Of a DNA stretch of 64,000 nucleotides, positions 46,126-64,000 are shown one piece after another. Origin of the DNA: an uncultured Actinomycetes bacterium (lineage in GTDB: Bacteria > Actinomycetota > Acidimicrobiia > Acidimicrobiales > SZUA-35); contig CADEDH010000009.1 in the NCBI GenBank assembly GCA_902826025.1, positions 22,796-86,795 on the forward strand. Direction: 5' to 3'. Positions within the stretch are counted from its first letter, which is position 1; each line of letters opens with the position of its first letter. The notes under the pieces were generated by a model, which was given only the letters and a program-made list of their open reading frames with translations, ran no database searches and was not told the origin of the DNA. The translations under genes were made by a program, and so were the position numbers.

Positions 46126-46212
46126 CGGCTCTCGTACTTCCCGGTATGACGCGAACCTTAAACCGCGAGTCCCGTAGTGGGCTACAAGAAGACTCGGTTC
46201 GGTAGCTGTGGC

Positions 46213-46623: not shown

Positions 46624-46657
46624 ACCCGACCCGGCGAGCGAGCGACGAGGCCAAACC

Positions 46658-48800: not shown

Positions 48801-48828
48801 CGGCTCAGCGTACGATGGAACTCGCAGG

Positions 48829-49224
48829 TCAGGTCACCTTGATGACGATCTGACCGCTGGGGTGCACGGAGCAGACGCCCTCGAACACGCCGGGCGAGGC
48901 GAACTCCTGGCGCATCGTCTCCCCGGCGCCAACGAAGAAGGGACCCACCAGGTGACCCCGGTCGTCGTCATTCACGATCTCGATGACGTCGCCCACGTGG
49001 ACGTCCATCTCGGCTGGCAGCACCTCGATCGGGTCGCCCTCGATGGCGGCCTGGCCGGCGCCGGCCGGGATCACGTAGTGGAAGTCGGCGCTGCTGGCAC
49101 TGTCGGCGCCCTGCAGCTTGAAGCCGTCGTCGCCGGCCGCTCCGGCGCTGCAAGCGGCGGCGGACAACGGTATGACCAACGCCACGGCGACGGCCCGCGC
49201 TGCCCGCCGCCGCCGATCGGTCAC
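48829..49224 (-). CDS. Cupredoxin-like lipoprotein
   Basis: GTG 49224 forms a GTGA overlap with the SCO1 stop. The lipobox is LSAAAC. VHVGDVIEIVNDDDRGHLVGPF...PGVFEGVCSVHPSGQIVIKV follows the cupredoxin_1 pattern (His ... Cys-x2-His). Confidence 0.65.
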   Translation of the reverse strand: MTDRRRRAARAVAVALVIPLSAAACSAGAAGDDGFKLQGADSASSADFHYVIPAGAGQAAIEGDPIEVLPAEMDVHVGDVIEIVNDDDRGHLVGPFFVGAGETMRQEFASPGVFEGVCSVHPSGQIVIKVT

Positions 49225-49847
49225 GCCACCCGCCCCAGCAGGGTGCGCAGATCGGCGGCCAGATCGTCCGGTTTGGTGCCGAAGGTCCAGCTCAGCACGA
49301 GGTCGCCCTCGGGATCGACGGCGTACAGCGAGGTCGTGTGGTACGGCTGGGGCTTGCCGTCGACCTCCTCGTGGCCGTAGTCGGCCCCGAACCCTTCGGC
49401 CGCGGCCCGGAGCCTCGCGTCGTCGAGGGTGCGGACCGCCTTGGCGTCGGGCACGAACGACCGAACGTATCCGGTGAGGATCTCCGGGGTATCGACCTCG
49501 GGGTCGATGCTGACCATGGCCAACTCGACGTCTGACGCCTGGTCGCCCAGATCCCCCAGAGCCTGGCGTATGTCGGCCAGGGTGGTGGGGCAGATGTCGG
49601 GGCAGTTCGTGTAGCCGAAGTACACCAGCATCACCTTGCCGCCGGTGGCCTTCATGGCCAGGTCGGTCTCCGTGCCGTCGGCCTCAACGGCCGGCAGCGT
49701 GAGATCCCCGACGTGGGGGGTGGGCGTGCGTTCGTAGCCGGCGAAGGCCGCATCGCCATCGCTCCCGCAGCCGGCGGCGAGGGTGACGGCACCGACGAGC
49801 AACGCGCCGACGATCGCCGCCCGCAGGCGGGAGCGGCGACCGATCAC
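49221..49847 (-). CDS. SCO1/SenC family copper chaperone / thiol-disulfide protein
   Basis: GTG 49847 forms a GTGA overlap with the upstream stop. VMLVYFGYTNCPDICPTT carries the CxxxC motif, and the later conserved His lies in YHTTSLYAVD. Confidence 0.88.
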   Translation of the reverse strand: MIGRRSRLRAAIVGALLVGAVTLAAGCGSDGDAAFAGYERTPTPHVGDLTLPAVEADGTETDLAMKATGGKVMLVYFGYTNCPDICPTTLADIRQALGDLGDQASDVELAMVSIDPEVDTPEILTGYVRSFVPDAKAVRTLDDARLRAAAEGFGADYGHEEVDGKPQPYHTTSLYAVDPEGDLVLSWTFGTKPDDLAADLRTLLGRVA

Positions 49848-50431
49848 GGGGCCTCGGTCCGGACCTCGACGTTCACCGTCTTCTCCCCCGCCTTGTCGAA
49901 GGTGAGCGTCAGGTCGAACGTGCTGCCTTCCTTCAGCGGCGCCGCCAGCTCCATCAGCATGACATGGTAACCCCCGGGCGCCAGCTCCACGGTCTTGCCG
50001 GCCGGGATCTCGAGGCCCCCTTTGACCTCCTGCATGACCATGGCCTCGTCGCCGCCGGTGCTGTCGGTCGAACCCATCGCCATCGACGACTCGGTGCCTC
50101 CGCCCGCCGGCACCATCTCGTGGATCTGGGCCATGCCGGCGATCGCCGACGGCACCTCGACCTTGAGCAGCGAGTCGTCGTCGGTGCCACCCGTGATCGT
50201 CATGTAGGCGGCGCCGGTGTCGACCTCCGACGGGCTGGTGCGGGCCCAAGCCCCGCTGATGGCGATGGCGTCACCGGCGGAGTCGGCCGCCGCGCCGGCG
50301 GTCTCGGCCTCCGTGGTGTTCGTGCCGGCGCTGGTGGACGCGGAGTCGGAGCCGCAGGCGGCCCCCAGGAGGCCGGCCAGCGCCAACCCCGATCCGATCA
50401 GCAGCCGGCGAGTCCTCGTCGTCGTGAACAC
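49844..50431 (-). CDS. Copper chaperone PCu(A)C (DUF461)
   Basis: GTG 50431 follows gaggagag. The signal is lipoprotein-like (LLGAAC). The Cu(I) ligand pattern is QIHEM ... MVMQEV ... GGYHVMLM. Confidence 0.85.
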   Translation of the reverse strand: MFTTTRTRRLLIGSGLALAGLLGAACGSDSASTSAGTNTTEAETAGAAADSAGDAIAISGAWARTSPSEVDTGAAYMTITGGTDDDSLLKVEVPSAIAGMAQIHEMVPAGGGTESSMAMGSTDSTGGDEAMVMQEVKGGLEIPAGKTVELAPGGYHVMLMELAAPLKEGSTFDLTLTFDKAGEKTVNVEVRTEAP

Positions 50432-50562
50432 GTTCGTTCTCTCCTCGGTGACGGGCGGGCACCTCGTCGTACCTCGACCGTGGGCGTAGACCGGGCGGCG
50501 GCCCGAGAAGTTCCATCCGGCTCCGGTGTTCTTCGTCACACCCGGGCCCTACCCTGGCGCCC

Positions 50563-51108
50563 GTGGTGCGATCGCGCAGCGAGCAGTTGCTCCTGGGGGA
50601 ATGGGCCGTGCTCGGCATCCTGGCCAACGAGCCGGCCCATGGGTTCGCTGTATCCAAGCGGCTGGCCGCCACGGGTGACGTCGGGCGCGTGTGGTCGCTG
50701 TCTCGCCCCCTGACCTACCGGGCCCTCGACCAGCTGGCGGAGCGGGGCCTCATCCGGTCCAAGGGCGAGGAGCCGGGGCGGGCCGGCGGCCCCCGCACGA
50801 TCTACGGCGTCACCCCCCGGGGCCGCCAGATGCTGGCCCGGTGGCTGGCCGAGCCGGCCCAGCACCTTCGCGACGTGCGCACCGAGCTCCTGTTGAAGCT
50901 CGTTCTGTGCGATCTGGCCGCCATCGACCCGTCTCCCCTCATCGAGGCCCAGCGGGCGGTGTCGGAGCCGGTGGCCCGCAAGTGGGCGTCGGAGGCCCGC
51001 CGCAATGGGGGCGATCCGGTGACGCTGTGGCGCTGGGAGTCGTCCCGGGCCGTGGTCCGCTTCCTCGACCGCTTCGCCGCCGCCCGGCAGCAGGGCGGCC
51101 CGACCTGA
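50563..51108 (+). CDS. PadR-like transcriptional regulator (long form with a C-terminal helical domain)
   Basis: AVLGILANEPAHGFAVSKRL...LSRPLTYRALDQLAERGLI...PRTIYGVTPRG. It is divergent from the copper operon. Confidence 0.85.
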   Translation: MVRSRSEQLLLGEWAVLGILANEPAHGFAVSKRLAATGDVGRVWSLSRPLTYRALDQLAERGLIRSKGEEPGRAGGPRTIYGVTPRGRQMLARWLAEPAQHLRDVRTELLLKLVLCDLAAIDPSPLIEAQRAVSEPVARKWASEARRNGGDPVTLWRWESSRAVVRFLDRFAAARQQGGPT

Positions 51109-51151
51109 ACCCGATCGGGCGGCGGCCCGTAGTGCGGGGCCCCCGCCGCCG

Positions 51152-51919
51152 ATGAGCGCCCCCAGCGCCGATCCGGCATCCCTACTGGCAGCGGCCGGTT
51201 TCGTGGCCGCGGCGGAGGAAGCCGAGCTGCTGGCGGCCGCAGCCGGCGGGCACCCGGCCCGGCTGGAGGCCATGGTCGCCCGCCGGCTGACAGGCGAGCC
51301 CCTGGCCTGGATCGTGGGCCATACCGTGTTCGCCGGGCACCGGATCACGGTCGCCCCCGGGGTGTACGTACCCCGCCCCCACACCGAGGCGGTGGTGCAC
51401 CGGGCCCTCCACCACCTGCCGGTCGACGGCGTGGCGGTGGACGCCTGCACCGGCTCGGGCGCTCTGGCCCTCGCGCTGGCCCGGGCCCGACCCGGCGCCC
51501 GGGTGGTGGCGACCGACGCCGATCCGGCGGCGGTGGCCTGTGCCCGGGCCAACGGAGTGGACGCCCGGCAGGGTGACCTGCTGACACCGGTCCCGGCCGA
51601 CCTGACCGGCCGGGTGGACGTGGTGGTGGCCGTGGTGCCCTACGTACCCACCCCGGCTCTCCCCCTGCTGCAGCGGGACACCTTCCGATTCGAGTCGGCA
51701 CTGGCCTACGACGGCGGCCCCGACGGGGCCCGGCTCCTGCGCCGGCTGGCGGCTGACGCCAGGACCCTGCTCCGCCCCGGCGGCCACCTGGTGGCCGAGC
51801 TGGGCGGAGACCAGGCGGCGGTGATCCCGGCCGAGCTGGCCGCTCTGGGCTACCGCGACATTGCCGTGCTGGCCGACGACGAGGGCGACCCCCGCGCCGT
51901 CGAAGCCGGGTGGGGGTGA
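51152..51919 (+). CDS. HemK/PrmC-related putative protein-(glutamine-N5) methyltransferase with a divergent substrate motif
   Basis: LTGEPLAWIVGHTVFAG, VYVPRPHTE, SAM motif I VDACTGSGALAL, and VVPY (51632-51643) in place of NPPY. Confidence 0.75.
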   Translation: MSAPSADPASLLAAAGFVAAAEEAELLAAAAGGHPARLEAMVARRLTGEPLAWIVGHTVFAGHRITVAPGVYVPRPHTEAVVHRALHHLPVDGVAVDACTGSGALALALARARPGARVVATDADPAAVACARANGVDARQGDLLTPVPADLTGRVDVVVAVVPYVPTPALPLLQRDTFRFESALAYDGGPDGARLLRRLAADARTLLRPGGHLVAELGGDQAAVIPAELAALGYRDIAVLADDEGDPRAVEAGWG

Positions 51920-51926
51920 GCGGCCC

Positions 51927-52730
51927 GTGCGGGTGGTGAGCTGGAACGTGAACTCACTGCGGGCCCGCCAGGAGCGGGTGCTCGGCTGGCTCGACCGCCA
52001 CCAGCCCGACGTCGCCCTCCTGCAGGAGACCAAGGGCACCGACGGCCACCTCGACGCCATCGGGTTCCCGGCGGCCGCCGCCGCCCGGGGCTACGAGGTG
52101 GCTCACCACGGGCGCGACCACTGGAACGGGGTGGCGGTGCTGAGCCGGGTGGGTCTCGACCGGGTGCAGCGGGGGTTCCCCGGGATCAACCGGGCCCCCT
52201 TCGACGAGGCCCGCGCGATCGCCGCCACCTGTGGCGGCGTCCGCTGCTGGTCGGTCTACGCCCCCAACGGGCGGACGCTCACCGACCCCCACTACCTGTT
52301 CAAGCTGGTGTGGTTCGAGCGGCTCCGGGCGGCGGTGGCCGCCGACCTGGGTCATTCCGATCCCGTCCCCGACCTGCTGTTGGCCGGCGATCTCAACGTT
52401 GCCCCGGCCGACGACGACATCTACGACCCGGTGCGCTGGCGCCGCCTCACCCATGCCAGCCCGGCGGAACGGGCGGCGGTGACCGCCCTGGCCGATCTGG
52501 GGCTGGTCGACGTGACCCGCGAGCGGCACCCCGGGCCCGGGGTCTACACCTGGTGGAGCTACCGGCCGGGCCAGCTGGAACGGAACCGGGGGCTGCGGAT
52601 CGATCTGGCCCTGTGCTCGGCCCCGGTGGCGGGCCGGGTGGCCGGCGTGTGGATCGACACCGCCGAGCGGGCCGCCCCCGGCGCCTCCGACCATGCCCCC
52701 CTGGTGCTCGACCTGGCCCCCCACCCCTGA
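51927..52730 (+). CDS. xthA: Exodeoxyribonuclease III (AP endonuclease family 1)
   Basis: GTG 51927. The blocks are VVSWNVNSLRAR, DVALLQETK, GDLNVAP and the terminal SDHAPLVLDL. Confidence 0.9.
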   Translation: MRVVSWNVNSLRARQERVLGWLDRHQPDVALLQETKGTDGHLDAIGFPAAAAARGYEVAHHGRDHWNGVAVLSRVGLDRVQRGFPGINRAPFDEARAIAATCGGVRCWSVYAPNGRTLTDPHYLFKLVWFERLRAAVAADLGHSDPVPDLLLAGDLNVAPADDDIYDPVRWRRLTHASPAERAAVTALADLGLVDVTRERHPGPGVYTWWSYRPGQLERNRGLRIDLALCSAPVAGRVAGVWIDTAERAAPGASDHAPLVLDLAPHP

Positions 52731-52774
52731 TCTGGTGTCCCCCACCCGTCACCGGTGACGCCCTCGACACCAGA
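52731..52774. terminator. Nested palindrome immediately after the xthA stop
   Basis: The outer 9-bp stem is tctggtgtc (52731-52739) paired with gacaccaga (52766-52774). It encloses a perfect 14-nt palindrome, cgtcaccggtgacg (52747-52760). There is no U-tract. Confidence 0.45.
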
Positions 52775-52850
52775 TCCCCCCGACATCAGATCATGGTCAG
52801 CCGGTCGGGGTTTGGTGCCGCGGCGGGGCGCCCGGTACCGTCGGCGCCCG

Positions 52851-53660
52851 ATGACGAGCGGCCCGGTCAACCTCCACTCCGCCCTCCAGCTCACCCCCCG
52901 GGGCGACGGAGTGCTCGAAGCCGGCATCGCCGAGGGCTGGGACGTCCGGGGCAATCCCCACGGCGGCTATCTCCTGGCCCTGGTGGCCGGGGCCATGGCC
53001 ACCGTCGTACCCCAACCCCACCCGGTGGCCATCGCCGCCACCTACCTGGCCGTGCCCCACTTCGGCCCGGCCGAACTCCACGTGGAGCCGGTGCGGCTGG
53101 GCAAGCGGCAGAGCACGGCGTCGGTGCGCCTGCTCCAGGACGGCCTGGAGCGGGTGCGGGCCACCGCCACCTTCGGCCACCTCCCCGAGAGCGATCCCGA
53201 CCACCCCGCCGGCCCCGTCGACGCCCCCATCGTGGCCCCGCCCGAGGCGTGCCACCATCACGAGATCCTGGCCGACGCGGAGGGCGAGGAGATCCGCCTC
53301 CACCGCAGCCTCGACCTGCGGCTGGCCCCCGGGACCGGATGGGTGGTGGGCGAGCCCACCGGCACCGGTGAGCTGGTGGGTTGGCTCCGCCTGGCCGATG
53401 GGACCCCGCCCGACGTGGCCGCCACCCTCGTCTTCTCCGACGGGATGCCCCCGTCGATCTTCGAGGAACGGGGTCGGGTGGGCCACGTGCCCACGCTCCA
53501 GCTCACCACTCACCTCTTCGCCCTGCCCTCGCCGGGATGGGTGCTGGGCCGCTTCCACACCCGGGTCGTCAACGGGGCCTTCGTGGGCGAGGATGGCGAC
53601 CTGTGGGACGAGACCGGCAAGCTGGTGGCCACGACCCGCCAGCTGGCCCTGCTGGTGTAG
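52851..53660 (+). CDS. Acyl-CoA thioesterase (TesB-like double hotdog / thioesterase-like superfamily)
   Basis: ATG 52851. GNPHGGYLLALVAGAM, GKRQSTASVRL, and a second-half hotdog with FVGEDGDLWDETGKLVATTRQ. Confidence 0.75.
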   Translation: MTSGPVNLHSALQLTPRGDGVLEAGIAEGWDVRGNPHGGYLLALVAGAMATVVPQPHPVAIAATYLAVPHFGPAELHVEPVRLGKRQSTASVRLLQDGLERVRATATFGHLPESDPDHPAGPVDAPIVAPPEACHHHEILADAEGEEIRLHRSLDLRLAPGTGWVVGEPTGTGELVGWLRLADGTPPDVAATLVFSDGMPPSIFEERGRVGHVPTLQLTTHLFALPSPGWVLGRFHTRVVNGAFVGEDGDLWDETGKLVATTRQLALLV

Positions 53661-53732
53661 ACAACCCTCTGCTGGCATCGGCTGAGGCCTGCTGGTAGCG
53701 GCAATTGCCCTGGTCAGGGCGATTCCGCGGGC

Positions 53733-53754
53733 CCGGTTGACCACCGGTTCTTTT
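53733..53754 (+). terminator. Weak candidate intrinsic terminator (5-bp stem plus T-tract)
   Basis: ccggt-tgacc-accgg is followed by ttctttt. It is one of the very few T-runs in the window and lies about 75 nt after the thioesterase stop. The stem is short. Confidence 0.25.
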
Positions 53755-53855
53755 ACACCCTGGCGCGTGCGTAGACGGTGACTCCTGGGTAGGGTTGCCC
53801 ACCCGCCGGGCGAGATCCCGGCTGGTTCCCGCCAAACAAAACCAGGAGCAAGCTC

Positions 53856-55820
53856 ATGACGCGACGACGTTGGCGCGCTCTGGCTGCTGTTGGGCTAGTC
53901 ACCGTGCTCTTTGCCACGGTCGACAGCCCGGCTGAGGCCGCGCCCCGAGCTACCACCACCCAGGCCTACGAGGTGTGGGTCACCGATGCTGCCGAGAACG
54001 AGTTGCTCGTCTACTCGGGCACGGCCCTGGAGGACAGCGCCCGGCCCCGCAACGAGGCCGACGTGATCGATCTGGCTGCGTTGTTCGATCTCTCGGGCCC
54101 CAACAACACCACCGGCTTGGCGGTGTCGGGGCCCCAGACGGTCGATGTGAGCCCCAACGGGCGATATGTGGCCGTGGTGTTCGCCGAGAGCGGGCACGTG
54201 GCCGTCTTCGACGCCAAGACTCATCAGCCCAAGGCCCTGATCCTGCCGTCGGCCAGCCGGCGCGGCCGGTTGACCACCGCCGCTTCGGAAGCCAGCCCGG
54301 TGTCGTCGGCCCAGTGGCTGGCCGACGGCTCGGCCATCGTGCTGGCCAACCAGGGCACGAAGCGGGTGGAGCGCATCGCCTACGACGCCACCACCGACTC
54401 CTTCGCCTACGACGGCGGGGCGGCGTTCGACCTGTCCCGGTGCACCACGCCAGGGGGAAAGCCGTGCCAGTCGACCTCCCCCGTCGACCCGGCCAACCCC
54501 GGCTACTTCGGACCTGACAACCGCCCCGACACCACCCCGGTGTGTGTGGTGGCCACCGACCGGGGCCATGTGCTGGTGACGATGGCCGGCGGCGGCCTGT
54601 TCGTGCTCGACCCCGCCGCCACCCCCATGCACCTGGTGGCCGCCTACGGCAACCAGTCCGTTGGCCGCGAGGCGTGCGGCGGGGCCCAGACCGACCGCTT
54701 CGTGCACCTGGCAGCCGACACCGCCACCGCCAGCGATCCGTTCCAGTATTCGCTGTACCAGGTGCGCGACAACTACCCCCGGGCGCCCCGCACGATCGTC
54801 GACAACGAACCGCAGCGGGCCCCGAAGCTGTTCTGGCGCTCGCCCGATGGCACCATGGATCCCCACCCCCGGGCCATGGCCATCGCCGGATCGGCCAACT
54901 CCCTGTGGAACCTGGAACGGTCGTCGGGGATGGCCGACGTGTTCAGCCCCACCTCGCTGGCCAAAGTGACTTCGGTGCCCCTGGCCGGTGACCTCGTGGA
55001 CGACCCGAGGACGGTGGCGGCGGCGGCCTCGCCCGACGGCAAGCGGTTGTTCGTGCTGCTGGGCGGCACCATGCCGGGTGAGCCCGGTGGGAGCCGTCCC
55101 CTGGGGCTCGGCATCATGACCATCTCCGCCACCGGCACCGGCGGCAGCCTGACCGAGCTGCTGGGCACGGCCGAGGCCCTGCCTACGGTGGAGCATCCAA
55201 CCGAGCCACCGGCCACGACGACCCCGACGACGGACCCGGAGCCGGCTGACCCGCCGACCACGGACTCGGTCCCCTCGGACTCGGCCCCCTCGGACTCGGT
55301 CCCCATGGACTCGATGCCTGAAGACCCGGCCCCCACCGACATGGATCCCACCGAGCCGGCGCCGACCGACGAGACGGTGGCCACCACCACATCGCTGGTG
55401 CGTCGTACCCCGGCCACCACGGCCTCCACCCGCCAGACCCTGTCGGCCAGCGGCGCCACCACCACCGCCACCAACCGCAAGGTGACGACCACGACGTTCC
55501 GGGCCCTCGCCGCAACCAGCACCACCCGCCGGGCGGCGGCCCCCACCACCAGCACGCGCAAGGGGCTGGGGGTCATCGCCACGGCCACCACCGCTAGCGC
55601 GCCGACCAAGCGGGCGGGCCTGATCCCGTCGGCTGACCTCGTGGCCAAGCCGACCACCACCATGATGGCGGGTAAGACCGCCACGACGAGGGCCGCCGGG
55701 CCCGCCCCGTCCACCACAGCTCCGGCCACGGTGAGCGGGGCCGGGAGCGGGGCGGGGGCCATGCCGGCGCCAGCCGAGCCCGGCGGTATGGCGGTGGTGA
55801 TGGCAGCCAAGGGCAGCTGA
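53856..55820 (+). CDS. Secreted protein: YVTN/lactonase-like beta-propeller followed by an acidic Pro/Asp/Ser repeat and a basic Thr/Ala/Arg-rich tail
   Basis: aggag lies 8 nt upstream of ATG 53856. The signal peptide is RWRALAAVGLVTVLFATVDSPAEA. Propeller-type strings are DVSPNGRYVAVVFAESGHVAVFD and SPDGKRLFVLLGG. The C-terminal ~240 aa are low complexity. Confidence 0.7.
   Translation: MTRRRWRALAAVGLVTVLFATVDSPAEAAPRATTTQAYEVWVTDAAENELLVYSGTALEDSARPRNEADVIDLAALFDLSGPNNTTGLAVSGPQTVDVSPNGRYVAVVFAESGHVAVFDAKTHQPKALILPSASRRGRLTTAASEASPVSSAQWLADGSAIVLANQGTKRVERIAYDATTDSFAYDGGAAFDLSRCTTPGGKPCQSTSPVDPANPGYFGPDNRPDTTPVCVVATDRGHVLVTMAGGGLFVLDPAATPMHLVAAYGNQSVGREACGGAQTDRFVHLAADTATASDPFQYSLYQVRDNYPRAPRTIVDNEPQRAPKLFWRSPDGTMDPHPRAMAIAGSANSLWNLERSSGMADVFSPTSLAKVTSVPLAGDLVDDPRTVAAAASPDGKRLFVLLGGTMPGEPGGSRPLGLGIMTISATGTGGSLTELLGTAEALPTVEHPTEPPATTTPTTDPEPADPPTTDSVPSDSAPSDSVPMDSMPEDPAPTDMDPTEPAPTDETVATTTSLVRRTPATTASTRQTLSASGATTTATNRKVTTTTFRALAATSTTRRAAAPTTSTRKGLGVIATATTASAPTKRAGLIPSADLVAKPTTTMMAGKTATTRAAGPAPSTTAPATVSGAGSGAGAMPAPAEPGGMAVVMAAKGS
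55263..55322. repeat. 15-nt x 4 in-frame tandem repeat (DSVPS DSAPS DSVPM DSMPE) inside the CDS
   Basis: The sequence is gactcggtcccctcg, gactcggccccctcg, gactcggtccccatg, gactcgatgcctgaa. Confidence 0.85.
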
Positions 55821-55830
55821 CGATCCCGAC

Positions 55831-55883
55831 GGCGAACTGTGGCGCCAGCGCGCAGAATCCAGCGCCTGGCGCCACAGTTCGCC
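55831..55883. terminator. Perfect 18-bp inverted repeat (GGCGAACTGTGGCGCCAG) between convergent genes; same GCGAACTG core as the REP-like family
   Basis: ggcgaactgtggcgccag (55831-55848) pairs with ctggcgccacagttcgcc (55866-55883) across a 17-nt loop. It sits centred in the 71-nt spacer between the stops at 55820 and 55892. Confidence 0.65.
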
Positions 55884-55891
55884 ATACTGCG

Positions 55892-58800
55892 TCAGGGGGC
55901 GAGGGCCACCTGGACGATCTCGAGCGCGGCGCCGCTCACCAGATAACCCCGCCCCGCCGGCCACTGGTGGCTGCGGACCCGGGGCAGGGCCGTACCGAAC
56001 ACCTCAGCATCGTCCACCGGGGCCGGCTGCAGCAGCAGCCCCCGCCGCCCGGCCGTGAGCACCCGGGCCAGCGGGTCGTAGGACGACCGGCGGGCCGAGG
56101 TGTCGTCGACGGCGGCCACCACCGACCACCGGATGCCGTCGGCCCCATCGGCCAGGCGGTCGACCGGGACCCCGCTGTCGTGGAGGGTGTTGGCATCGTC
56201 CACCAGCACCAGGATCGGTGGCGGGGCCGGGCCGTCGCCCCCCTGTCCTGCCCGGCCGCCGCCGGCGGCCGGCAGAGCCAGCAGTTCCTGCACGGCCTCG
56301 TCGGCGTCCATGAAGCCGGCGGCCAGCCGCCACCCGGCCGGCAGAGCGGCGGTCGGCGGTTTGTTGGCCAGGTACCACACGGCTGACACCGCCGGCCGGG
56401 CCCCCTGCCCGATGGCCCGCAGCGCATTCGACCGCCCCGAGAACCGGGGGCCCGACACGAGGAACACCCGGGGTCCTTCCGACCACCGCCACGGGGTGAA
56501 GTCCCGGTCCCTCAGGCCTACCGCATCGCCGGCGGGCAGCTCGTGGCGATGGACCACCACCGGCAGCAGCCGCACCGGTGGGGCCTCGGCCACGGCTCGG
56601 GCCCGGAGCTCGACGGCCAGGCGGGCCAGGGCGTCGAGCTGAGCCTCGGCTCCCGGCTGGCCGCCCAGGATCGCCACCTGGGCCTCGTCGGTGCCCTCCA
56701 TCGCCCGTCCCGGAGGCGATGCGGCGTGGAGCTGGGCCGGCACGTCCAACGAGCGGTAGTCGTCCGCGCTGGTCTGGCGCAGCACCAGCCACCGGCCGAT
56801 CGTGCGGGCCATGGTGGAGTAGATCGCCTCCCGGCGGGGGGCGGTGAGCACCACGTGAATGCCAAAGGGGCGGCCCTCGGCGGCCAGGCGCCTCACCAGG
56901 TTCACCCACCGCTCCCCTTCCAGCTGCTCGTAGGCCTGGTGGAAGGCGGGATAGCCGTCGATGAGGAGCCAGGTGCGGTGGATCTCGTCGCCGGGCTGGG
57001 CGGCCCGGTACTCGGCCAACGACGCCGCCCCCACGGCGGAGAAACGCTCGGCCCGCTCGTCGAGCAGGGCACCCAGGTCGGCCAGCAGGCGGCGCACCCG
57101 GTCGGGGTCGTCCTCCCCCACCACCGAGCCTACGTGGGGCAGCACCTCCAGCGGCCGCAGACCCCGGCCGGCGAAGTCGAGGCAGTGGACGAACGGCACC
57201 CGCTCGGCCCGCGACTGGCCCAGGGCCACGGCAGCGGCGATGGTGCGCAGGGCCACTGTCTTGCCGGCCCCGCCGGTGCCCACGATGCCCAGGCTGCCGT
57301 CGACGTCGGGCTCGAAGGTCAGCGCCACCTGGTCCTGGCGGCCCGGCCGATCGACCATACCCAGGACGACAGCCTCGTGATCGGGGCCCGGCGGGGTGAA
57401 CGGCACCGCTTCCAGGGCGCAGACGGGAGCGAGGGGTTCCAGCCACGGCTTGGGGGGCAGGGGTGCCCCGGTGGCGACGTGGGCCGCCGTGATCGTGGCC
57501 ACCAGCCGCTCCAGGTCGCTCTGGCCGGTGCCGCGCTCGGCGTCACGGTGCCCGGCACCGAATCGGGCCCCGGCTGCCGGGTGGCTCGGCCCGCCGGGTA
57601 GGCCCTGGGTGGTGCCGAAACGGAGGTCGGCCAAAGAGACCACGGGCCCGTCAGCCCCTGCGCCCGATACGCCGCCCACGTAGGCGGTCTGGAACGGCAC
57701 CCGGTCCCGGGGGCCGATGCGCACGATGGCCCGGCCCGGCAGGGCCCGGTCGATGTGGGCGGCGTCGGCCACGTCTATGACGTCGGTTGAGTCCTCGGCG
57801 TCGGCCACCCGTAGGGCGATTCGCAGATCGGTGTTGGCCCGGATCTGGGGCGTGATCACGCCGGCCGGGCGCTGGGTGGCCAACACCAGATGGAGGCCCA
57901 GGCTCCGGCCCCGCTGGGCCACCCCCACCACACCCTCGATGAACTCGGGCACCTCCTGCACCAGAGCGGCGAACTCGTCGACCACGATCAGGAGGCTGGG
58001 CGGGGCGCCGGGCAGGCCCCGGTCGAGCATCTCGGCCAGGTCGGCACAGTCGTTGGCGTGCAGCACCCGTTCCCGGCGGGTCAGCTCAGCCCTCAGGCTC
58101 TGGAGGGCCCGGTTCACGCCGGCGGCGTCGAGGTCGGTCACCATGCCTACGGCGTGGGGCAGTCGGCTGCAGTCCTTGAAGGCGGCACCGCCCTTGTAGT
58201 CGACCAGGAGGAACGTGACGGCGTGGGGACCGTGGGTGGCGGCCAACGACGAGATCCACGTCTGGAGCAGCTCGCTCTTGCCCGCTCCGGTGGTGCCGGC
58301 CACCAGGCAGTGGGGGCCGTCCCGGCGGATGTCGAGCGACAGCACCTCAGTGGCCATCCGCCCCACCGGGGCGGCCAGCGACCGGCTGGGCCGGGCCCAG
58401 CGGGCTGCCACCACGGCCGGCGAGTCGAGGACGTCGGGCTCGCCCAGCAACTCGGGCAGGTCGACCCGGGCCGGGATCTCGGCCGCCCGGGCCACCTGCG
58501 AGGCGGCGTCGGTGATCGGGGCCAGGCGGCGGGCCAGGCTCTCGGCCTCGACCCCGGCGATGCCCTCCACCGCCACCGCCTCCACCGGAGGCCCCGCCGC
58601 CACCGGCGGGGTGACGATGCCCACCGGCCGCTCCCCCGCCGTCAGCTCCACGTCCACCACCGTGGCCACCGGGCGGGGCACCCGGCGGGAGGCCCCGGCC
58701 ATCCACAACGTGTACACCCCGGCGGCGGGGCCGTGCTCCAAGAGGTAGGTCAGCTCGTGCTGCTCCACCGGTACCCCTTCCACCACGACGACGACCACCA

Positions 58801-60286
58801 GCGGGACAGGCCGGGGAGCATCGGCCGGCAGGCGCAGGGCCAGACGCTGGCCGATCAGCGCGTTCAGCTCGGCCATCACCCGGCGGCATTCCACCTCGGT
58901 GGCAGCCAGGACCGGGCCGGGCAGGGGGCCCACGTCGACCGGGCAGTGGGGCAGCCACTTCATCCAGTCCCAGCGGGCGGCGTCGCCTGCCGGCACCAGG
59001 GCGGCCAACACCAGCTCGGCCGGGCTGTGGAGCGCCGCCAGCTGGGTCACCACGGCGAAGCCGAGGGGCAGGGCGTGGTCGACGGGTCCGGAGATGCCGA
59101 GGCCGCCGGCGCCCAGGTGGGCCAGAGCCGGTACGCCGGGGGCCACGGCGAAGCGCTCGGCCACAGCGTCGGCCTCGGCCCGTAGGGCCGGCTCTCCCCG
59201 GTCGGGCCGCTGCACCCCGGTGAGCGAAGGCTGGTCGGCCAGGCCCACCCGCACGGTCAGCGCATCGGGATCGTCAGGGCCCCGCTCCCACAGCCGGAGG
59301 CTGAGGTGGTCGATGAACGCCCCCAGCTCGGACACGGCCGGCGCCGCCCGCAGCCGCTCCCGTTTCTCGGCGACGCCCGCCGCCTCCAGGCGGATCTCGG
59401 CGTCGATCAGGGTCGAGCGGAAGGCGGCCAGGTCGTCCCGGTGCTGCAGCCGGCCCGACCGGCGGCTCTCCAGGTACGACCCGAGCACCATGATCGGGGA
59501 GAACACGGTGAACACCCCGAACAGATAGTTGGGCCGGCCTCCGAACAGCACGGGGGCGTAGACCATGGCCGCCGCCATCACCAGGGGGGCCAGGGCCGCC
59601 ACCATCGGCAGCCGGGTGCGGGGCGGCGGCCCGGGCGGGGCGGGCAGGACCACCCGGGCGGGCTCCGGCGGGCGGTCGTGGCGGGGCGGCCGGTTGAAGG
59701 CCACCTGGTGATCGGCCACGTCGTCGAGACCCCGGGGCCGTTGCAGGTGCTCGATCTCGATCCACGTGTTGCCCAGCAGGGCCCGGGTACCGGGCACCAG
59801 CGTGGTGGCGCCGGGCCGCACGTCGTCGCCCACCACCACCCCGTTGGTGGAGCCGGCGTCGAGCACGGTCACCGACGAGTCGTCGACCACGATCACGGCG
59901 TGGCGGCGCGACAGGGCCTCGTCGTCGATCACCAGGTCGTTCCCGGGGTCCCGCCCCACCGAGGTGCGACCGTAGGGCAGCTCGATCAACGTGTCGGGGT
60001 GACCCTCCCGTAGGAGGCGGAGGACGGCGGCCGGGGGCAGCTGGCGGTGGCGGGCCGGGCGCCGCCCCACCAGGCCGGCGGCCGGCGGAGCCACGGTGAG
60101 GGCGTCGCCGGAACGGATGTCGGCCCCGGCCAGGGCCCGCTCCCCCGCCAGCAGCTGGCCGGTCCGGGCCACCCGCAGGCGGGAGCCGGGCGCCGCCCCC
60201 AGGGCGTCGAGCAGGTGGTCTACGCAGGCGCTGGCGTCGGCGTCCACCACCCGGTCGTGGTGGTCGATCGAGACGAGGAGCCGCAT
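55892..60286 (-). CDS. EssC/EccC-like FtsK/SpoIIIE-family ATPase: N-terminal ubiquitin-like segment, FHA domain, 2 TM helices and three P-loop modules
   Basis: Lies within ORF 55892..60385, with the start at ATG 60286 (MRLLVSIDHHD). The FHA domain is TSVGRDPGNDLVIDDEALSRRHAVIVV...LDAGSTNGVVV. The TM pair is LPMVAALAPLVMAAAMVYAPVLF and FGVFTVFSPIMVLGSYL. The Walker A motifs are AGTTGAGKSE (58271-58300), GTGGAGKTV (57254-57280) and a degenerate GPRFSGRS (56411-56450). Walker B is LLIVVDEFA. Confidence 0.88.
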   Translation of the reverse strand: MRLLVSIDHHDRVVDADASACVDHLLDALGAAPGSRLRVARTGQLLAGERALAGADIRSGDALTVAPPAAGLVGRRPARHRQLPPAAVLRLLREGHPDTLIELPYGRTSVGRDPGNDLVIDDEALSRRHAVIVVDDSSVTVLDAGSTNGVVVGDDVRPGATTLVPGTRALLGNTWIEIEHLQRPRGLDDVADHQVAFNRPPRHDRPPEPARVVLPAPPGPPPRTRLPMVAALAPLVMAAAMVYAPVLFGGRPNYLFGVFTVFSPIMVLGSYLESRRSGRLQHRDDLAAFRSTLIDAEIRLEAAGVAEKRERLRAAPAVSELGAFIDHLSLRLWERGPDDPDALTVRVGLADQPSLTGVQRPDRGEPALRAEADAVAERFAVAPGVPALAHLGAGGLGISGPVDHALPLGFAVVTQLAALHSPAELVLAALVPAGDAARWDWMKWLPHCPVDVGPLPGPVLAATEVECRRVMAELNALIGQRLALRLPADAPRPVPLVVVVVVEGVPVEQHELTYLLEHGPAAGVYTLWMAGASRRVPRPVATVVDVELTAGERPVGIVTPPVAAGPPVEAVAVEGIAGVEAESLARRLAPITDAASQVARAAEIPARVDLPELLGEPDVLDSPAVVAARWARPSRSLAAPVGRMATEVLSLDIRRDGPHCLVAGTTGAGKSELLQTWISSLAATHGPHAVTFLLVDYKGGAAFKDCSRLPHAVGMVTDLDAAGVNRALQSLRAELTRRERVLHANDCADLAEMLDRGLPGAPPSLLIVVDEFAALVQEVPEFIEGVVGVAQRGRSLGLHLVLATQRPAGVITPQIRANTDLRIALRVADAEDSTDVIDVADAAHIDRALPGRAIVRIGPRDRVPFQTAYVGGVSGAGADGPVVSLADLRFGTTQGLPGGPSHPAAGARFGAGHRDAERGTGQSDLERLVATITAAHVATGAPLPPKPWLEPLAPVCALEAVPFTPPGPDHEAVVLGMVDRPGRQDQVALTFEPDVDGSLGIVGTGGAGKTVALRTIAAAVALGQSRAERVPFVHCLDFAGRGLRPLEVLPHVGSVVGEDDPDRVRRLLADLGALLDERAERFSAVGAASLAEYRAAQPGDEIHRTWLLIDGYPAFHQAYEQLEGERWVNLVRRLAAEGRPFGIHVVLTAPRREAIYSTMARTIGRWLVLRQTSADDYRSLDVPAQLHAASPPGRAMEGTDEAQVAILGGQPGAEAQLDALARLAVELRARAVAEAPPVRLLPVVVHRHELPAGDAVGLRDRDFTPWRWSEGPRVFLVSGPRFSGRSNALRAIGQGARPAVSAVWYLANKPPTAALPAGWRLAAGFMDADEAVQELLALPAAGGGRAGQGGDGPAPPPILVLVDDANTLHDSGVPVDRLADGADGIRWSVVAAVDDTSARRSSYDPLARVLTAGRRGLLLQPAPVDDAEVFGTALPRVRSHQWPAGRGYLVSGAALEIVQVALAP

Positions 60287-60402
60287 CAGTCGGCCTCTCC
60301 GGCCCGGCGGGCCGCCACCGGCGCTCCGGTACCGGCATCGTGTCCTAGAATGGCCGGCGGTCGGGCGGCAGCCCGAGCGGAACACGGCGGAGCGGCGACA
60401 CG

Positions 60403-61146
60403 ATGGAACCGATTGACGAGAAGTTCGGCCCGTTCCTGGAGCGGGGATGCCTCGTCGTCGACTTCTGCGGCGAGATTCACGTGGTGGACCCGTCGGAGAG
60501 CTTGACGTTCGGACGCGATGCCGAGCTGGCCATCGACGACAACGAGTTCCTCCACCGCCAGCTGGGCCAGTTCCAGCGCCGGGCCGACCTGTGGTGGTTG
60601 ACCAACATCGGCTCCCGCATCGAGCTGGAGGTGTTCGACCGCAACACCCAGGCCAGCGCCCGGCTCCCGGCGGGCACGGCCCAGGCCCTGGCCGGATCCG
60701 ACTTGCTGGTGCAGTTCACGGCGGGGCCCACCCACTACGAACTGCTGGTGCAGTGCGACACCTCGATCACAGTGCTCCCGGCGGAGCCGAGCGACACGGT
60801 GAGCCTGAGCTCGCTGCCCTGGACGGTGGAGCAGCGGGTGCTGATGGCGGTACTGGCCGAGTCGCTGCTGCGATCGCCCCACCTGCCTCTCAACCTCCCG
60901 TCGAACGACGAGGCCCGCCAGCGGCTGGGCTGGGAGAAGGCCAAGTTCAACCGCAAGCTCGACAATGTGTGCGACCGGCTCACGAACTCCGGCGTGCGGG
61001 GCCTGGAGCGGGGCCAGGAGCGGCGCAACAACGAGCGGCGCCGGGTGCTGGCCGAGACGGCGGTGGAATACGGCATCGTCACCACCGACGACCTGGCGCT
61101 GTTGGAGCGCTATCTCGCCCCCGGTGAACGCCCAACGGTGACCTGA
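60403..61146 (+). CDS. Hypothetical protein with a degenerate FHA-like N-terminal domain and a basic helical C-terminal region
   Basis: ORF of 247 aa. LTFGRDAELAIDDNEFLHRQLGQFQRRADLWWLTNIGSRIELEVFD follows the FHA GR...H...N spacing. The C-terminus is KFNRKLDNVCDRLTNSGVRGLERGQERRNNERRRVLAETAVEYGIVT. It is divergent from the ATPase gene. Confidence 0.6.
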   Translation: MEPIDEKFGPFLERGCLVVDFCGEIHVVDPSESLTFGRDAELAIDDNEFLHRQLGQFQRRADLWWLTNIGSRIELEVFDRNTQASARLPAGTAQALAGSDLLVQFTAGPTHYELLVQCDTSITVLPAEPSDTVSLSSLPWTVEQRVLMAVLAESLLRSPHLPLNLPSNDEARQRLGWEKAKFNRKLDNVCDRLTNSGVRGLERGQERRNNERRRVLAETAVEYGIVTTDDLALLERYLAPGERPTVT

Positions 61147-61202
61147 CCGGGAGAAGTCGGGGGCCACCGCCCCGTCCCGGGCGCCCGTCATCCCCATACC
61201 CG

Positions 61203-61649
61203 TCATCCCCCCATCCCGAGCACGAGCGCGGAGGGGGCCACGCCGGCCAACAGGATCGTGCCCAGGGGCACCGTGACGGCGGCCGGGCGGCGGAGCAGGA
61301 GCCAGATCAGGCCGGCGGCCAGACCGACGATGGTGAATCCGAGCCATGCCAGCACCGGCCCGGAGCCCATCCAGGCCTCCGCCACCACCAGGGGCCCGAT
61401 CACCTTGGCGTCCCCCGCTCCCATCAGGCCGGCCGACCACACTGCCACCCCGAGCACGCCTGCCCCCAGGCCCAGGGCGACGGCCGGCCAGGGCCCGAGC
61501 CCGTCGGTGGGGCGGCCCGAAGCCAGGAGGAGGGCCACGGCGACGGCGAAGGCCGCCACCCCGGCGTTGGGCAGGCGGCGCCGGGCCAGGTCCCCAGCGG
61601 CCAGCGCCGTGGCCACCACCGCCACCGCCACCAGTGCCATCACCGCCAT
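61203..61649 (-). CDS. A24-family prepilin (Flp/type IV) leader peptidase, CpaA/TadV-like
   Basis: Last 148 codons of ORF 61203..61832, starting at ATG 61649. The two catalytic Asp contexts are AAGDLARRRLPN and GLMGAGDAKVIG, and the body is polytopic. Confidence 0.75.
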   Translation of the reverse strand: MAVMALVAVAVVATALAAGDLARRRLPNAGVAAFAVAVALLLASGRPTDGLGPWPAVALGLGAGVLGVAVWSAGLMGAGDAKVIGPLVVAEAWMGSGPVLAWLGFTIVGLAAGLIWLLLRRPAAVTVPLGTILLAGVAPSALVLGMGG

Positions 61650-61674
61650 GTCGCCCGCTGTCCCCGTTCCCGCC

Positions 61675-64000
61675 TCAGCCGCCGACCGGCTCGCGCCGGC
61701 GGACGACCGACCGGAGCAACCCCTCGTAGACCGCCCGGGTCTCCGCTGTGGGCTGGGCGCCGCCCTCGCCCCCACCATCGGCGCCATCGGCGCCATCGGC
61801 GGCGACGGCACCGCCATCGGCGGCGATGGCACTGCGCAGGCTGCGCCAGATGCTCTCGATGAGGGCCGGATCGCCCGCGGCCGCCGCCAACCGCATCCAG
61901 GCCCGGTAGATCCGCTCGCTGGTGGGCAGGGCGGTCAGGCCCTGGTGGATGGCCTGGTTGGCCAGGTCGGCGTCTCCCGCCCGCTGGGCCGTGTCCACCG
62001 TGTCGAGCACGACCGCTTCCACCAGATCGGCGGCGTAGTCGGCCAGGTCGGTCGCCCCGGCCCAGCGGAGGGGCACCCCGCCCAGGGGCGGGCCCGCGAT
62101 CAGGGCCAGACCGGCCGCCATGGCCTCGGGTCGAACCCCGCCGGGCGGGGCATCGAGCAGGCCGTGGAGGATTTCGAGGTCGGTGCCCACCCCGATCAGC
62201 TGGAGCTCATCGGCCGGGCCGGCGGCTGGCAACCGCTCGGGCCCGAGTGCATCCCGGGCGGCATCGATCACCCGGGCCACCTGGGGCGGGCTGACAGGGC
62301 GGTCGCCCCACAAGGCGGCGGCCACCTGGGCTGCGGTGGCCCGGCGCCGGGGTTGGACGGCAAGATAGGCCACGAGGGAGAGGGCGTGGGCCTGGAGCTC
62401 GGGCACATCGGGGCAGCGGACCGGGCCGAGCAGGTGGATCAGGATCTCGCCGGGGCCGGAGGTGGCCCCGCTGACGGTGCCCCGAGCCCCGACCCGGGCC
62501 CGGATCCTCTCCGCCCCGGCGGGCGATGCCTCACCGTGGCCCGGGGCGGGCCCCGCCGCCGCCGAGGCCAGGAGACCGGTGAGCTCCTGCTCCTGGCGCC
62601 GGGTGAGGGCCGCCGCCACCAGCGGCCCGTCGCTGTCGCCGCCAGCCGGCCGGTACCGGGCCGTGCCGTCCTCGTCCAGCTCCAGCCGGGCCCCGACCCG
62701 GCTCGATCTCAGGTCACCCGCCACCAGCAGGGCCACGCCAGCCCGTCGGCCGGCCAGATCGAGGAAGGGATTGAGGTTGGTGTGCTCGGTCCGCACCACC
62801 AGGACCTCCAGCTCCCGGGGCCCGAGCCGGTGGTCGAGTCGCCCGTGACGGTCAACAGCGTCGCGGGCCAACTGCAGCGCCTCCTCCTCGGTGCGCCGGG
62901 CCACCCGGTCGAGCTGGCCGGCGTCACCCACGGCGAAGCCCACGGTGGTGACGAAGGCGTTCGACAGGTGCTCGCCCAGGCCCAACTCGTAGACCATGGC
63001 TCGCACGGTGGAGGCCACCCGTTCCGGGGTTCCGGCCACGCTGAGCGACCCGATCGCCGCCAGGTCGGCCAGGATCTGGGGGCCGGTGGCGCCATCGTCG
63101 CCCCGGCGCTCCCCCAGCGTGACCAGCCCGGGCAGCGCCACGGGCGGCTGGTGGGCGCCGCCGTCGGCGTCGGGGCCGTCGTAGGATCGATGCCAGCGCT
63201 GGGGATCGACCACCGTCCACCCCTCGATCGTGACCTCGGGCTCGGCGTCCCACACCACTTCCAGCCCGTCGGTACTCGACAGACCGACGGTCACGATGCC
63301 CCCCGCCACCTGCATGAGGGGGTGCAGCTGGGCTGCCACCCACAGGGTGAGGCCGGGGTCGGCCGCCGCCGCCAGTTGGTCGACGAAGCTGGATCCGTCG
63401 GCGCCGGGAGGAGCGAACCCGAACGCCGCCCGGCGCCGGCGCCGGGTCTCACCGATCAGCCCGAGCATGGCCGCCGCCGCCACCGCCATCACTTCCACCC
63501 GGCCGAGGGTGGCCGCATCGGCAGTCGTGGGGGCGGAGGCGGTAGCTGGGGTCACCGGCGCCACCGGGACGACCTCGATCTGCTCCAGCACCGCACTTGC
63601 CCGGGGCCCGCTCCCGGCTTCGGCCGCGGCTTCGGCCACGGTCGACGCCGCCGCTGCGCCATCGGTACCGGCCCCGGTCGGGGCCCCTTCGCCGTCGGGC
63701 GCCCGATCGGCGGGGCCGGCCGTCAGCGGGGGCGACGGCACGGCGGGCGCCGGGGCGGCCGCCCCGGCGATCGGCGGCAGGACCACCACCTGTCCGGGGT
63801 AGATCAGGTCCGGATCGACGATGGGCGGCGTGTTGGCCTCGATGACCACACCGAGTTGGTCGACGATCTGGGCGTTGGTGGGATCCGGCGTACCGGTGGC
63901 CACGAGCTGGGCCTCGGTCAGCTCCCACAGGTTGTCACCCCGCTCGACAACGTGCTCGCCGGCGGCGGTGGGGACCGCCGGGGTCGGGCTGAGGTCGGGC
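61675..64000 (-). CDS. LysM-TM-(unknown cytoplasmic domain)-winged-helix-BTAD (SARP-like) protein; the N-terminus lies off the window
   Basis: The frame stays open beyond the track start at 63903. Upstream in-frame codons read EHVVERGDNLWELTEAQLVATG...DPDLIYPGQVVVLP, which is LysM-like. The TM helix is VEVMAVAAAAMLGLIG. ILIHLLGPVRC...LSLVAYLAVQPRRRATAAQVAAALWGDRP is an OmpR-type winged helix. DLADYAADLVEAVVLD...ERIYRAWMRLAAAAGDPALIESIWRSL is BTAD-like. Confidence 0.7.
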   Translation of the reverse strand, partial: PDLSPTPAVPTAAGEHVVERGDNLWELTEAQLVATGTPDPTNAQIVDQLGVVIEANTPPIVDPDLIYPGQVVVLPPIAGAAAPAPAVPSPPLTAGPADRAPDGEGAPTGAGTDGAAAASTVAEAAAEAGSGPRASAVLEQIEVVPVAPVTPATASAPTTADAATLGRVEVMAVAAAAMLGLIGETRRRRRAAFGFAPPGADGSSFVDQLAAAADPGLTLWVAAQLHPLMQVAGGIVTVGLSSTDGLEVVWDAEPEVTIEGWTVVDPQRWHRSYDGPDADGGAHQPPVALPGLVTLGERRGDDGATGPQILADLAAIGSLSVAGTPERVASTVRAMVYELGLGEHLSNAFVTTVGFAVGDAGQLDRVARRTEEEALQLARDAVDRHGRLDHRLGPRELEVLVVRTEHTNLNPFLDLAGRRAGVALLVAGDLRSSRVGARLELDEDGTARYRPAGGDSDGPLVAAALTRRQEQELTGLLASAAAGPAPGHGEASPAGAERIRARVGARGTVSGATSGPGEILIHLLGPVRCPDVPELQAHALSLVAYLAVQPRRRATAAQVAAALWGDRPVSPPQVARVIDAARDALGPERLPAAGPADELQLIGVGTDLEILHGLLDAPPGGVRPEAMAAGLALIAGPPLGGVPLRWAGATDLADYAADLVEAVVLDTVDTAQRAGDADLANQAIHQGLTALPTSERIYRAWMRLAAAAGDPALIESIWRSLRSAIAADGGAVAADGADGADGGGEGGAQPTAETRAVYEGLLRSVVRRREPVGG

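Follow-up and report, generated by a model that had tools for sequence, protein, structure and literature searches.

A 64,000-nucleotide stretch of DNA from an uncultured Acidimicrobiales bacterium (contig CADEDH010000009.1 of assembly GCA_902826025.1; hereafter the window, meaning the whole stretch that was analysed) carries, at 55892..60286 on the minus strand, a gene that raises a simple question: what does an ATPase resembling the type VII secretion proteins EccC and EssC do in a place where no partner is visible? An earlier note on this DNA had described the gene as an orphan that fuses a ubiquitin-like (Ubl) segment and an FHA domain, and had suggested a role in DNA translocation gated by phosphothreonine (pThr). 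We found that the gene is one of the ordinary representatives of a family that is very large and poorly named, and that the type of system it belongs to is already in the literature. We consider it likely that its product is the motor and channel subunit of a non-canonical actinobacterial type VII-like (Esx) protein secretion system that is gated by phosphorylation.

The open reading frame (ORF) at 55892-60286 (-) is intact and real, as had been claimed, with a third-position G+C content (GC3) of 0.89-0.92 in a window of ~72% G+C. We placed its start at the ATG at 60286, where the homologues all open with M-[RK]-[LF]-[LK]. A longer, GTG-initiated version (to 60385) was rejected, and because every homologue starts at the ATG and not at the upstream GTG, the product is 1464 aa long, followed by a stop codon that the previous figure of 1465 aa had counted. 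Searches with Pfam identified FtsK_SpoIIIE (E 3.6e-54) in two stretches, where three had been expected, and the expected single FHA domain (PF00498, once, residues 108-167, E 1.2e-11). Against the NCBIfam models, the ATPase scored 514.8 bits with EssC (TIGR03928; residues 197-1204; cut-off 778.4), 366.5 bits with EccCa (TIGR03924; residues 216-872; cut-off 509.15) and 319.4 bits with EccCb (TIGR03925; residues 936-1295; cut-off 346.55), each score falling below its cut-off, and there were also weak matches to TraB and FtsK models. Among the sequences of solved structures in the PDB the best match was T. curvata EccC (282 bits), followed by EccC5 (212), YukB (204) and FtsK (65). The EccC5 and YukB alignments start at residue 197, with that to YukB spanning residues 197-872, and the FtsK match is confined to ~80 residues of the first ATPase module, D1. 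[quoted passage not shown] Judged by these sequence comparisons, the family is a distinct subfamily, the equivalog of neither EssC nor EccC.

The domain order given in the earlier note (Ubl, one FHA, two TM helices and three P-loops, the third with a Lys-to-Arg change) proved right throughout. The two TM helices (59483..59623 (-); residues ~222-245 and ~250-268) were read by eye from the hydrophobicity of the translation, and their positions are conserved in an alignment of 16 homologues. Module D1 (57650..58430 (-)) has the Walker A motif GTTGAGKSE (residues 664-672; 58271-58297) and the Walker B motif VVDEFAAL (57962-57985), both invariant across the family alignment. Module D2 (56640..57470 (-)) has the Walker A motif GTGGAGKT (residues 1003-1010; 57257-57280) and a Walker B motif, LLIDG (56942-56968), that lacks the catalytic Glu. 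In module D3 (55892..56639 (-)), with Walker B LVLVDD (56189-56212), the Walker A motif GPRFSGRS indeed carries the Lys-to-Arg change (residues 1279-1286), at 56429-56452 and so within ~20 nucleotides of where it had been placed. As S1283 and G1284 are invariant in the 16-sequence alignment and R1285 is kept in at least 90% of the family, the D3 Arg is a family trait and not a mark of decay.

We then considered the N-terminal segment (residues 1 to ~70; 60077..60286 (-)). An AlphaFold2 model of residues 1-95 had a predicted local distance difference test (pLDDT) score of ~94 over residues 1-70 and showed the order strand-strand-helix-strand-strand. Comparison of this model with the PDB using Foldseek returned, as top matches, ubiquitin or Ubl structures in every case, including EccD5 N-terminal domains and YukD (2BPS). 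These matches were uniform in kind, with template modelling (TM) scores of ~0.6 (target-normalised), and their E-values (~5e-3 to 2e-2) are modest, as is usual for a domain of 70 residues. A profile of 35 N-termini searched against the PDB also found ubiquitin-like chains, the best being a redesigned ubiquitin (E 3.7e-5) and the next another ubiquitin-fold design, ISG15 and SAMP1. The YukD model of Pfam, PF08817, which had been thought a possible match, was not matched by the ATPase at E <= 0.1 and is absent too from the precomputed Pfam lists of 120 homologues. Predicted structure, Foldseek and profile search all agree on the beta-grasp that had been suspected here, none of them indicating its absence, and as modelled the N-terminal segment is a ubiquitin-like beta-grasp fold.

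The FHA domain that follows (59747..59986 (-); residues ~101-180, with PF16697 matching 101-180) retains the pThr-binding pattern G-R / S-x-x-H / N-G. Across 16 diverse homologues G111, R112, S126, H129 and G149 are invariant and N148 is at least 90% conserved. The closest solved FHA domains are those of GarA and OdhI.

In order to place the gene within its family, we searched a collection of 5.8 billion proteins, clustered at 90% identity, and recovered ATPase relatives in 1251 clusters at E <= 1e-10. The top 120 homologues, which were inspected, are 1355-1559 aa long and all carry an FHA domain, and most span 93-100% of the query at 36-52% identity. A hidden Markov model (HMM) of the Ubl domain matched all 120, as well as 84 of 89 loci; the fusion, presented earlier as a rarity, is therefore family-wide. 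Among GTDB species representatives, 549 of the 600 matches listed encode an ATPase relative. By these counts, more than 1250 clusters and at least 549 species-level loci appear to carry the complete domain set, Ubl and Lys-to-Arg change included. We fetched the 80 best GTDB loci, and worked with ~89 loci in total, 58 of which had at least 20 kb of sequence and are referred to below as well-flanked. The 80 best include Arthrobacter, Microbacterium, Nocardioides, Rhodococcus, a Mycobacterium sp., Solirubrobacter and a Chloroflexia metagenome-assembled genome (MAG), and database homologues were found in Cellulomonas, Dactylosporangium, Actinocrinis, Streptosporangiaceae, Propionibacteriaceae and others. 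The family ranges over Actinomycetes, Acidimicrobiia, Thermoleophilia and some Chloroflexia. Homologues are annotated just as "FtsK/SpoIIIE domain-containing" or "FHA domain-containing" proteins. The closest relatives of the window ATPase are in Acidimicrobiales MAGs, at 86-91% amino acid identity. No exact database match was found for the ATPase with either candidate start, nor for the Cellulomonas homologue P0067.

Genes at these loci were called by GC3, clustered by BLASTP and checked with Pfam. The operon that recurs encodes a large Ig-like/fn3 surface protein, MoxR, DUF58, a TgpA-type transglutaminase, a Zn-ribbon/RDD/FHA protein and PP2C, then an FHA protein, a Ser/Thr kinase, a protein that we call c2, the ATPase and one or two proteins of ~90 aa. 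The ~90-aa neighbours are genuine WXG100 proteins: their profile finds EsxB of B. anthracis (4J41, E 7.6e-7) along with further Esx structures, and PF06013 is matched by 10 of 12. Of the 58 well-flanked loci, 42 have a WXG100-like gene no more than 10 kb away from that of the ATPase. The family loci are neither canonical ESX nor canonical T7SSb loci. The ~90-aa proteins often precede a protein with a WXG100 N-terminus and a Gly/Ala-rich tail, whose gene, followed by that of a ~160-aa LpqN-like protein (PF10738), regularly comes after the ATPase gene in other lineages (L034 14441-15541; L038 15934-16410; L086 15026-16706; L087 14431-16639); this pair could be an effector with its immunity protein or chaperone. 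Loci from Arthrobacter, Pseudarthrobacter, Paenarthrobacter and Sinomonas (L023, L028, L032, L043, L045, L048, L050, L051, L056, L063, L065, L067, L080 and L083) have an operon of the Esr type, described below, with the ATPase gene, and then ligA and housekeeping genes.

Does the window gene lack a WXG100 partner? Within the window it does. No WXG100-like ORF was found in the 64 kb when family HMMs were run over all six-frame ORFs of at least 45 aa (best E 1.1), which extends to the whole window the earlier statement that no gene of this size lies near the ATPase; the same HMM scores the relatives' genes at 1e-13 to 1e-29. The family HMMs found nothing in the stretches of the three closest relatives, L002, L003 and L004, either. 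EccB, EccD, EccE and mycosin were not seen by Pfam on the ATPase and 10 neighbouring ORFs (42.7-63.9 kb), nor by eye in the rest of the window's ORF list.

Beyond the window end the picture changes. Over 18 kb (45937-63954) the window runs colinear with L004, the nucleotide identity being 88-90%. Scanning genome contigs with a three-sequence alignment of WXG100 proteins from the next clade out, we obtained matches on the contig of L004 (L095; CAVTAP010000004.1, 138182-150454), on the contig of L002 (L096; JAWKIL010000001.1, 677045-689305) and on a contig of CAYRFS01, the MAG to which L003 belongs (L098). On the orthologous contigs the ATPase start is preceded, 13,555 bp upstream, by a WXG100-like gene of 94 aa on the opposite strand. 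The gene beside it, which heads a Tad-like operon, encodes a Ser/Thr kinase of 730 aa that has WD40 repeats (Pfam E 9e-39 and 6e-35). Both genes are intact in L095, L096 and L098. Read in the orientation of the ATPase, the order is WXG100 (reverse), kinase-WD40 (forward), SAF/CpaB-like, TadZ-like, TadA, TadB/C and pilin genes, then LysM and A24 genes (forward), c2 (reverse), the ATPase (forward) and a 654-aa protein (reverse). Given the colinearity with L004, a WXG100 gene is therefore predicted at ~73.8-74.1 kb, and by this extrapolation the window's own WXG100 and kinase genes would lie ~10 kb beyond coordinate 64000. The orphan appearance of the ATPase gene is in all likelihood an artefact of the window edge. 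The earlier note had foreseen that homologues might sit in canonical ESX or T7SSb loci with partner genes just outside the window: in the relatives, partners do lie past the point that corresponds to the edge, in loci that are not canonical. In the next clade out (50-52% identity), WXG100-type genes are found near the ATPase gene at every locus examined. Most of these loci have a 92-94-aa WXG100 gene and/or a divergent kinase-WD40 gene beside c2, and three of the four (L086, L087 and L090) have a WXG100-headed protein after the ATPase as well.

A further partner is present in the window and had not been flagged before. The c2 gene (60403..61146 (+)) encodes 247 aa and is divergent from the ATPase gene, from which it is separated by 116 bp (60287..60402) presumed, by position, to hold the promoters; this intergenic region is conserved with L004 and L002 and not with more distant relatives, and no operator was recognised in it. 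c2 adjoins the ATPase gene in 36 of the 58 well-flanked loci, a conserved pairing that speaks against the claim that the ATPase has no partners. Its family comprises 1292 database clusters, all named "hypothetical", and is as widespread as that of the ATPase. No Pfam model matched c2 and a PDB sequence search with it was unproductive. The AlphaFold2 model (pLDDT 92) consists of an 11-strand sandwich followed by six helices, and Foldseek matched the sandwich to the FHA fold, with Rv1747 FHA-1 (E 1.1e-5, TM score 0.75), OdhI and GarA as hits; the protein is thus predicted to have an FHA-fold N-terminal domain and a six-helix C-terminal domain. It keeps the G-R pair of FHA domains. Since the S-x-x-H motif is not obviously retained (...DDNEFLHRQ...), binding of pThr by c2 is uncertain.

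We propose that the ATPase forms hexamers in the membrane and that the substrates it exports are helical hairpins of the WXG100 type. D1 would be the catalytic motor module, while D2 and D3, the one without the catalytic Glu and the other with an Arg in Walker A, would for that reason probably be regulatory modules that bind nucleotide or dock substrate, as in EccC. The fused Ubl may act in cis as the free YukD/EsaB does in type VII secretion systems (T7SS) of class b, or as the Ubl of EccD does in class a. In known systems the Ubl is packed in between FHA region and DUF, and it fixes the cytoplasmic base of the machine (PMC12637312); we suggest a cis counterpart of this arrangement. By analogy, the FHA domain would read a phosphothreonine written by the linked kinase, on a target that could be the ATPase, c2 or the substrate, and Ser/Thr phosphorylation would switch assembly or secretion. 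Of the earlier proposal of a DNA system gated by phosphothreonine, the gating seems reasonable to us, with the FHA residues kept and Ser/Thr kinases as regular neighbours; the DNA system does not. c2 may serve as another phospho-dependent adaptor or regulator; that its helical domain binds DNA would be no more than a guess.

Several points weigh against a type VII-like assignment. The window itself shows no substrate, kinase or other T7SS gene, and its linkage to WXG100 and kinase genes is extrapolated from relatives of 86-91% identity. The ATPase lies under all of the curated EssC and EccC cut-offs in NCBIfam. No locus showed a membrane partner: EccB, EccD, EccE, MycP, EssA, EssB and EsaA were not seen among the recurrent neighbours at the ~89 loci, nor the first four among the called genes annotated with Pfam. 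That the ATPase alone forms the secretion channel is a presumption. The Arthrobacter-type loci, with no WXG100 gene within 10 kb, make up a second apparently substrate-less group. The packing of Ubl, FHA and DUF within the ATPase is drawn by analogy, and the EccC of Schaalia odontolytica, which we turn to below, is likened to the family by gene set and description rather than by sequence.

Should the ATPase indeed be the sole membrane component, the family might represent a minimal, self-contained type VII machine of four parts, namely the Ubl-FHA-EccC protein, c2, WXG100 and a Ser/Thr kinase, an idea that we put forward as a tentative one. In such a machine the cis Ubl would replace YukD or EccD, the ATPase and c2, as its two FHA proteins, would respond to the kinase by switching secretion on, and in Acidimicrobiales the kinase would also control the Tad pilus operon. 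If true, this would explain the missing free ubiquitin-like protein in FHA-type actinobacterial systems. With its conserved, unnamed c2, and with none of the known T7SS membrane partners seen, the family is a candidate for the simplest T7SS.

Three other explanations are less likely than a T7SS-like translocase. The one that fares best, though we regard it as improbable, is that the ATPase is not part of an independent Esx system and works with the adjacent Tad/Flp-like pilus operon, either exporting a pilus-associated or LysM-linked component or sharing co-regulation by the kinase. In the Acidimicrobiales clade a Tad-like operon with TadA, TadB/C, Flp/TadE-like, LysM and A24 genes abuts the c2-ATPase pair in three arrangements. 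In the window, L002 and L004 it lies upstream; in L086 it is also upstream, and the kinase and WXG100 genes stand between; in L090 it is downstream. In the window clade, moreover, the kinase-WD40 gene directly heads this operon on the same strand. The Tad-like stretches lie at 61203-64000 (-) in the window, 1-9093 in L004, 1-6385 in L086, 9208-15459 in L090 and 493-5791 in L095. The part inside the window comprises an A24 prepilin-peptidase-like gene (61203..61649 (-)), called in a Logan contig and the last of the operon, followed by a LysM protein gene of which the 3' part is inside (61675..64000 (-)); it runs past the window end and encodes ~1025 aa in relatives. Orthologues of the A24 gene match PF01478, weakly in L004 (E 7.9e-4) and by a recorded match in L086. 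The LysM orthologue in L004 is at 5556-8633 (LysM E 7.9e-9), and its cluster, c29, is common to the window, L002 and L004. The 10 kb upstream in L004 encode a TadA-type T2SSE ATPase, T2SSF, small pilin-like proteins, a LysM protein of ~1000 aa and an A24 peptidase. However, two of the five diverged Acidimicrobiales-clade loci examined (L087 and L088) have no Tad genes within 10 kb, and the cluster map of 80 loci from other lineages, in which unclustered genes were not individually annotated, shows no recurring Tad cluster by the ATPase. We know of no Tad system that uses an FtsK-type ATPase. The adjacency may be inherited synteny reshuffled through local inversions, and could reflect either that or functional coupling.

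Could the ATPase gene instead be, in the window lineage, the decaying remnant of a once complete T7SS locus, parted from its partners by the Tad insertion or by an inversion and no longer secreting? When outgroup loci of 50-52% identity are taken for comparison, the WXG100-headed protein downstream and the LpqN-like gene have been lost from the window clade, in which the WXG100 and kinase genes are also shifted by 13.6 kb. Measured against the L004 and L002 orthologues, however, the ratio of nonsynonymous to synonymous substitution rates (dN/dS) of the ATPase gene is 0.17-0.20 overall, with 0.03-0.05 for D1, which is under the strongest purifying selection within the protein, 0.10-0.14 for the FHA domain and 0.4 for the Ubl, and that of c2 is 0.08-0.17. 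The ATPase reading frame is intact in four independent genomes, its catalytic and pThr-binding residues are all retained, and the displaced WXG100 and kinase genes are themselves undamaged in L095, L096 and L098. Because the dN/dS values contradict decay, we rejected the pseudogene or remnant reading, which we regard as quite unlikely; by the same sequence-based measure the ATPase gene is functional in the window lineage.

The weakest explanation, a phosphothreonine-regulated DNA translocase of the FtsK/TraB kind acting in conjugation or chromosome segregation, can draw on the FtsK_SpoIIIE P-loop modules, on the weak TraB and FtsK matches and on source annotations that read "DNA segregation ATPase FtsK/SpoIIIE", but this suggestion of the earlier note found no support and was rejected on match pattern and neighbourhood as very improbable, since the EccC/EssC match, at 282-515 bits, takes in the stalk/DUF as well as all three modules, whereas FtsK reaches 65 bits over ~80 D1 residues, three such modules with two TM helices are the signature of a T7SS, linkage to WXG100 genes is systematic in the family, and no plasmid, integrase or relaxase genes were seen among the annotated neighbours, though no search was aimed at them.

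Downstream of the ATPase gene and convergent with it, as had been noted, lies a gene (53856-55820 (+)) whose 654-aa product has a signal peptide of the Sec type, matches a beta-propeller weakly and carries a Thr/Pro/Ala-rich tail of ~200 residues; beyond it are a thioesterase gene and other metabolic genes. The 654-aa gene was found only in the window, L002, L003 and L004, and it occupies the slot that is held by a WXG100-headed protein in three of the four next-closest relatives examined. A 93-aa ORF (55594-55875 (-)) follows the ATPase stop directly, in the position expected for a WXG100 gene. This frame, Pro/Trp-rich and antisense to the 654-aa gene, was rejected as a gene. Elsewhere in the window, at 34449-38300 (+), a look at the sequences suggests a conservon-type set encoding an 802-aa sensor-like, a 125-aa and a 219-aa P-loop GTPase-like protein.

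How does the proposed type VII-like translocase compare with systems that are already known? With T7SSa EccC it shares the three-module layout, and T. curvata EccC is, as noted, its best match among solved structures. The T7SSa system also has a Ubl domain, which resides on EccD and contacts the DUF of EccC, binding a surface equivalent to that used in T7SSb (PMC12637312). In contrast to the present family, EccC has neither an FHA domain nor a Ubl of its own, and ESX loci carry EccB, EccD, EccE and MycP. The actinobacterial YukD-like domain was described as always fused to a 12-TM protein (Iyer et al., 2006, PMC1779556).

Similarity to the EssC/YukB proteins of T7SSb extends to an FHA region before two TM helices, the stalk/DUF and three P-loop modules, and there too a ubiquitin-like protein (YukD/EsaB) is an obligatory part of the machine (PMC12637312). 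In the cryo-electron microscopy (cryo-EM) structure of the Bacillus system (Sci Adv 2025, PMC12637312), YukD is clamped between the FHA domains of YukB and the DUF. The present family differs in having one FHA domain with canonical pThr residues, whereas EssC has two that are degenerate, and in its fused rather than free Ubl, and EssA, the pseudokinase EssB, EsaA and a free EsaB/YukD are not found among the neighbour clusters of the 89 loci. The Ubl-FHA-EccC fusion can be regarded as a natural "Rosetta stone" for the YukD-FHA-DUF clamp seen in the Bacillus structure.

The recurrent family operon, followed by the ATPase and WXG100 genes, matches the components of a threat-sensing pathway, Esr, that Wang et al. 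(bioRxiv, Sept 2026, PMC13622651) have linked to Esx genes across Actinomycetales. Its components are an Ig-like/propeller sensor, MoxR, vWA, a transglutaminase, a kinase, a phosphatase and an FHA output; fusions of the FHA protein (EsrG) to EccC were reported, and deletion of eccC in Schaalia odontolytica abolishes secretion of EsxA/EsxB and AesA/AesB (PMC13622651). The window and L002, L004, L086, L087, L088 and L090, by contrast, show at most a kinase-WD40 gene of this set and have no MoxR, vWA, transglutaminase or EsrA gene nearby, the Acidimicrobiales kinase carries WD40 repeats and in the window clade heads the Tad-like operon, and PMC13622651 is silent on a Ubl in EccC and on c2.

In T7SSd (TsdA/C/D/H/I), which was defined in Olsenella and Bifidobacterium (Garrett, Higginson & Palmer, 2024, PMC11217815), the ATPase bears an FHA domain whose pThr motif is intact. 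The system further includes a kinase, WXG100, a protein with one TM helix and a large Ig-like protein, and is unique in having no detectable ubiquitin-like protein (PMC11217815). The present family is likewise actinobacterial, and shares with it the FHA ATPase with its intact pThr motif, the linked Ser/Thr kinase, the WXG100 gene, the lack of EccB, EccD, EccE and MycP and, in many loci, a large Ig-like protein (c13). Such a protein is not near the window gene, however, and in the present family a Ubl is fused to the ATPase. The N-terminus of O. uli TsdC (Fig. S2 of PMC11217815), through which alone we compared the two, is aligned there with the FHA of EssC and does not resemble the Ubl (MKLKLTL...ATVGDLA...LRSG), making membership of the family in T7SSd doubtful on sequence. 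A Ubl fused to the ATPase is not described in the available parts of PMC11217815, PMC13622651, PMC12637312 and PMC1779556. The family-wide Ubl fusion, c2, the lack of a known membrane partner and the Acidimicrobiales link to Tad and a WD40 kinase seem to be unreported, and the fusion hints at the whereabouts of the Ubl that FHA-type actinobacterial T7SS apparently lack.

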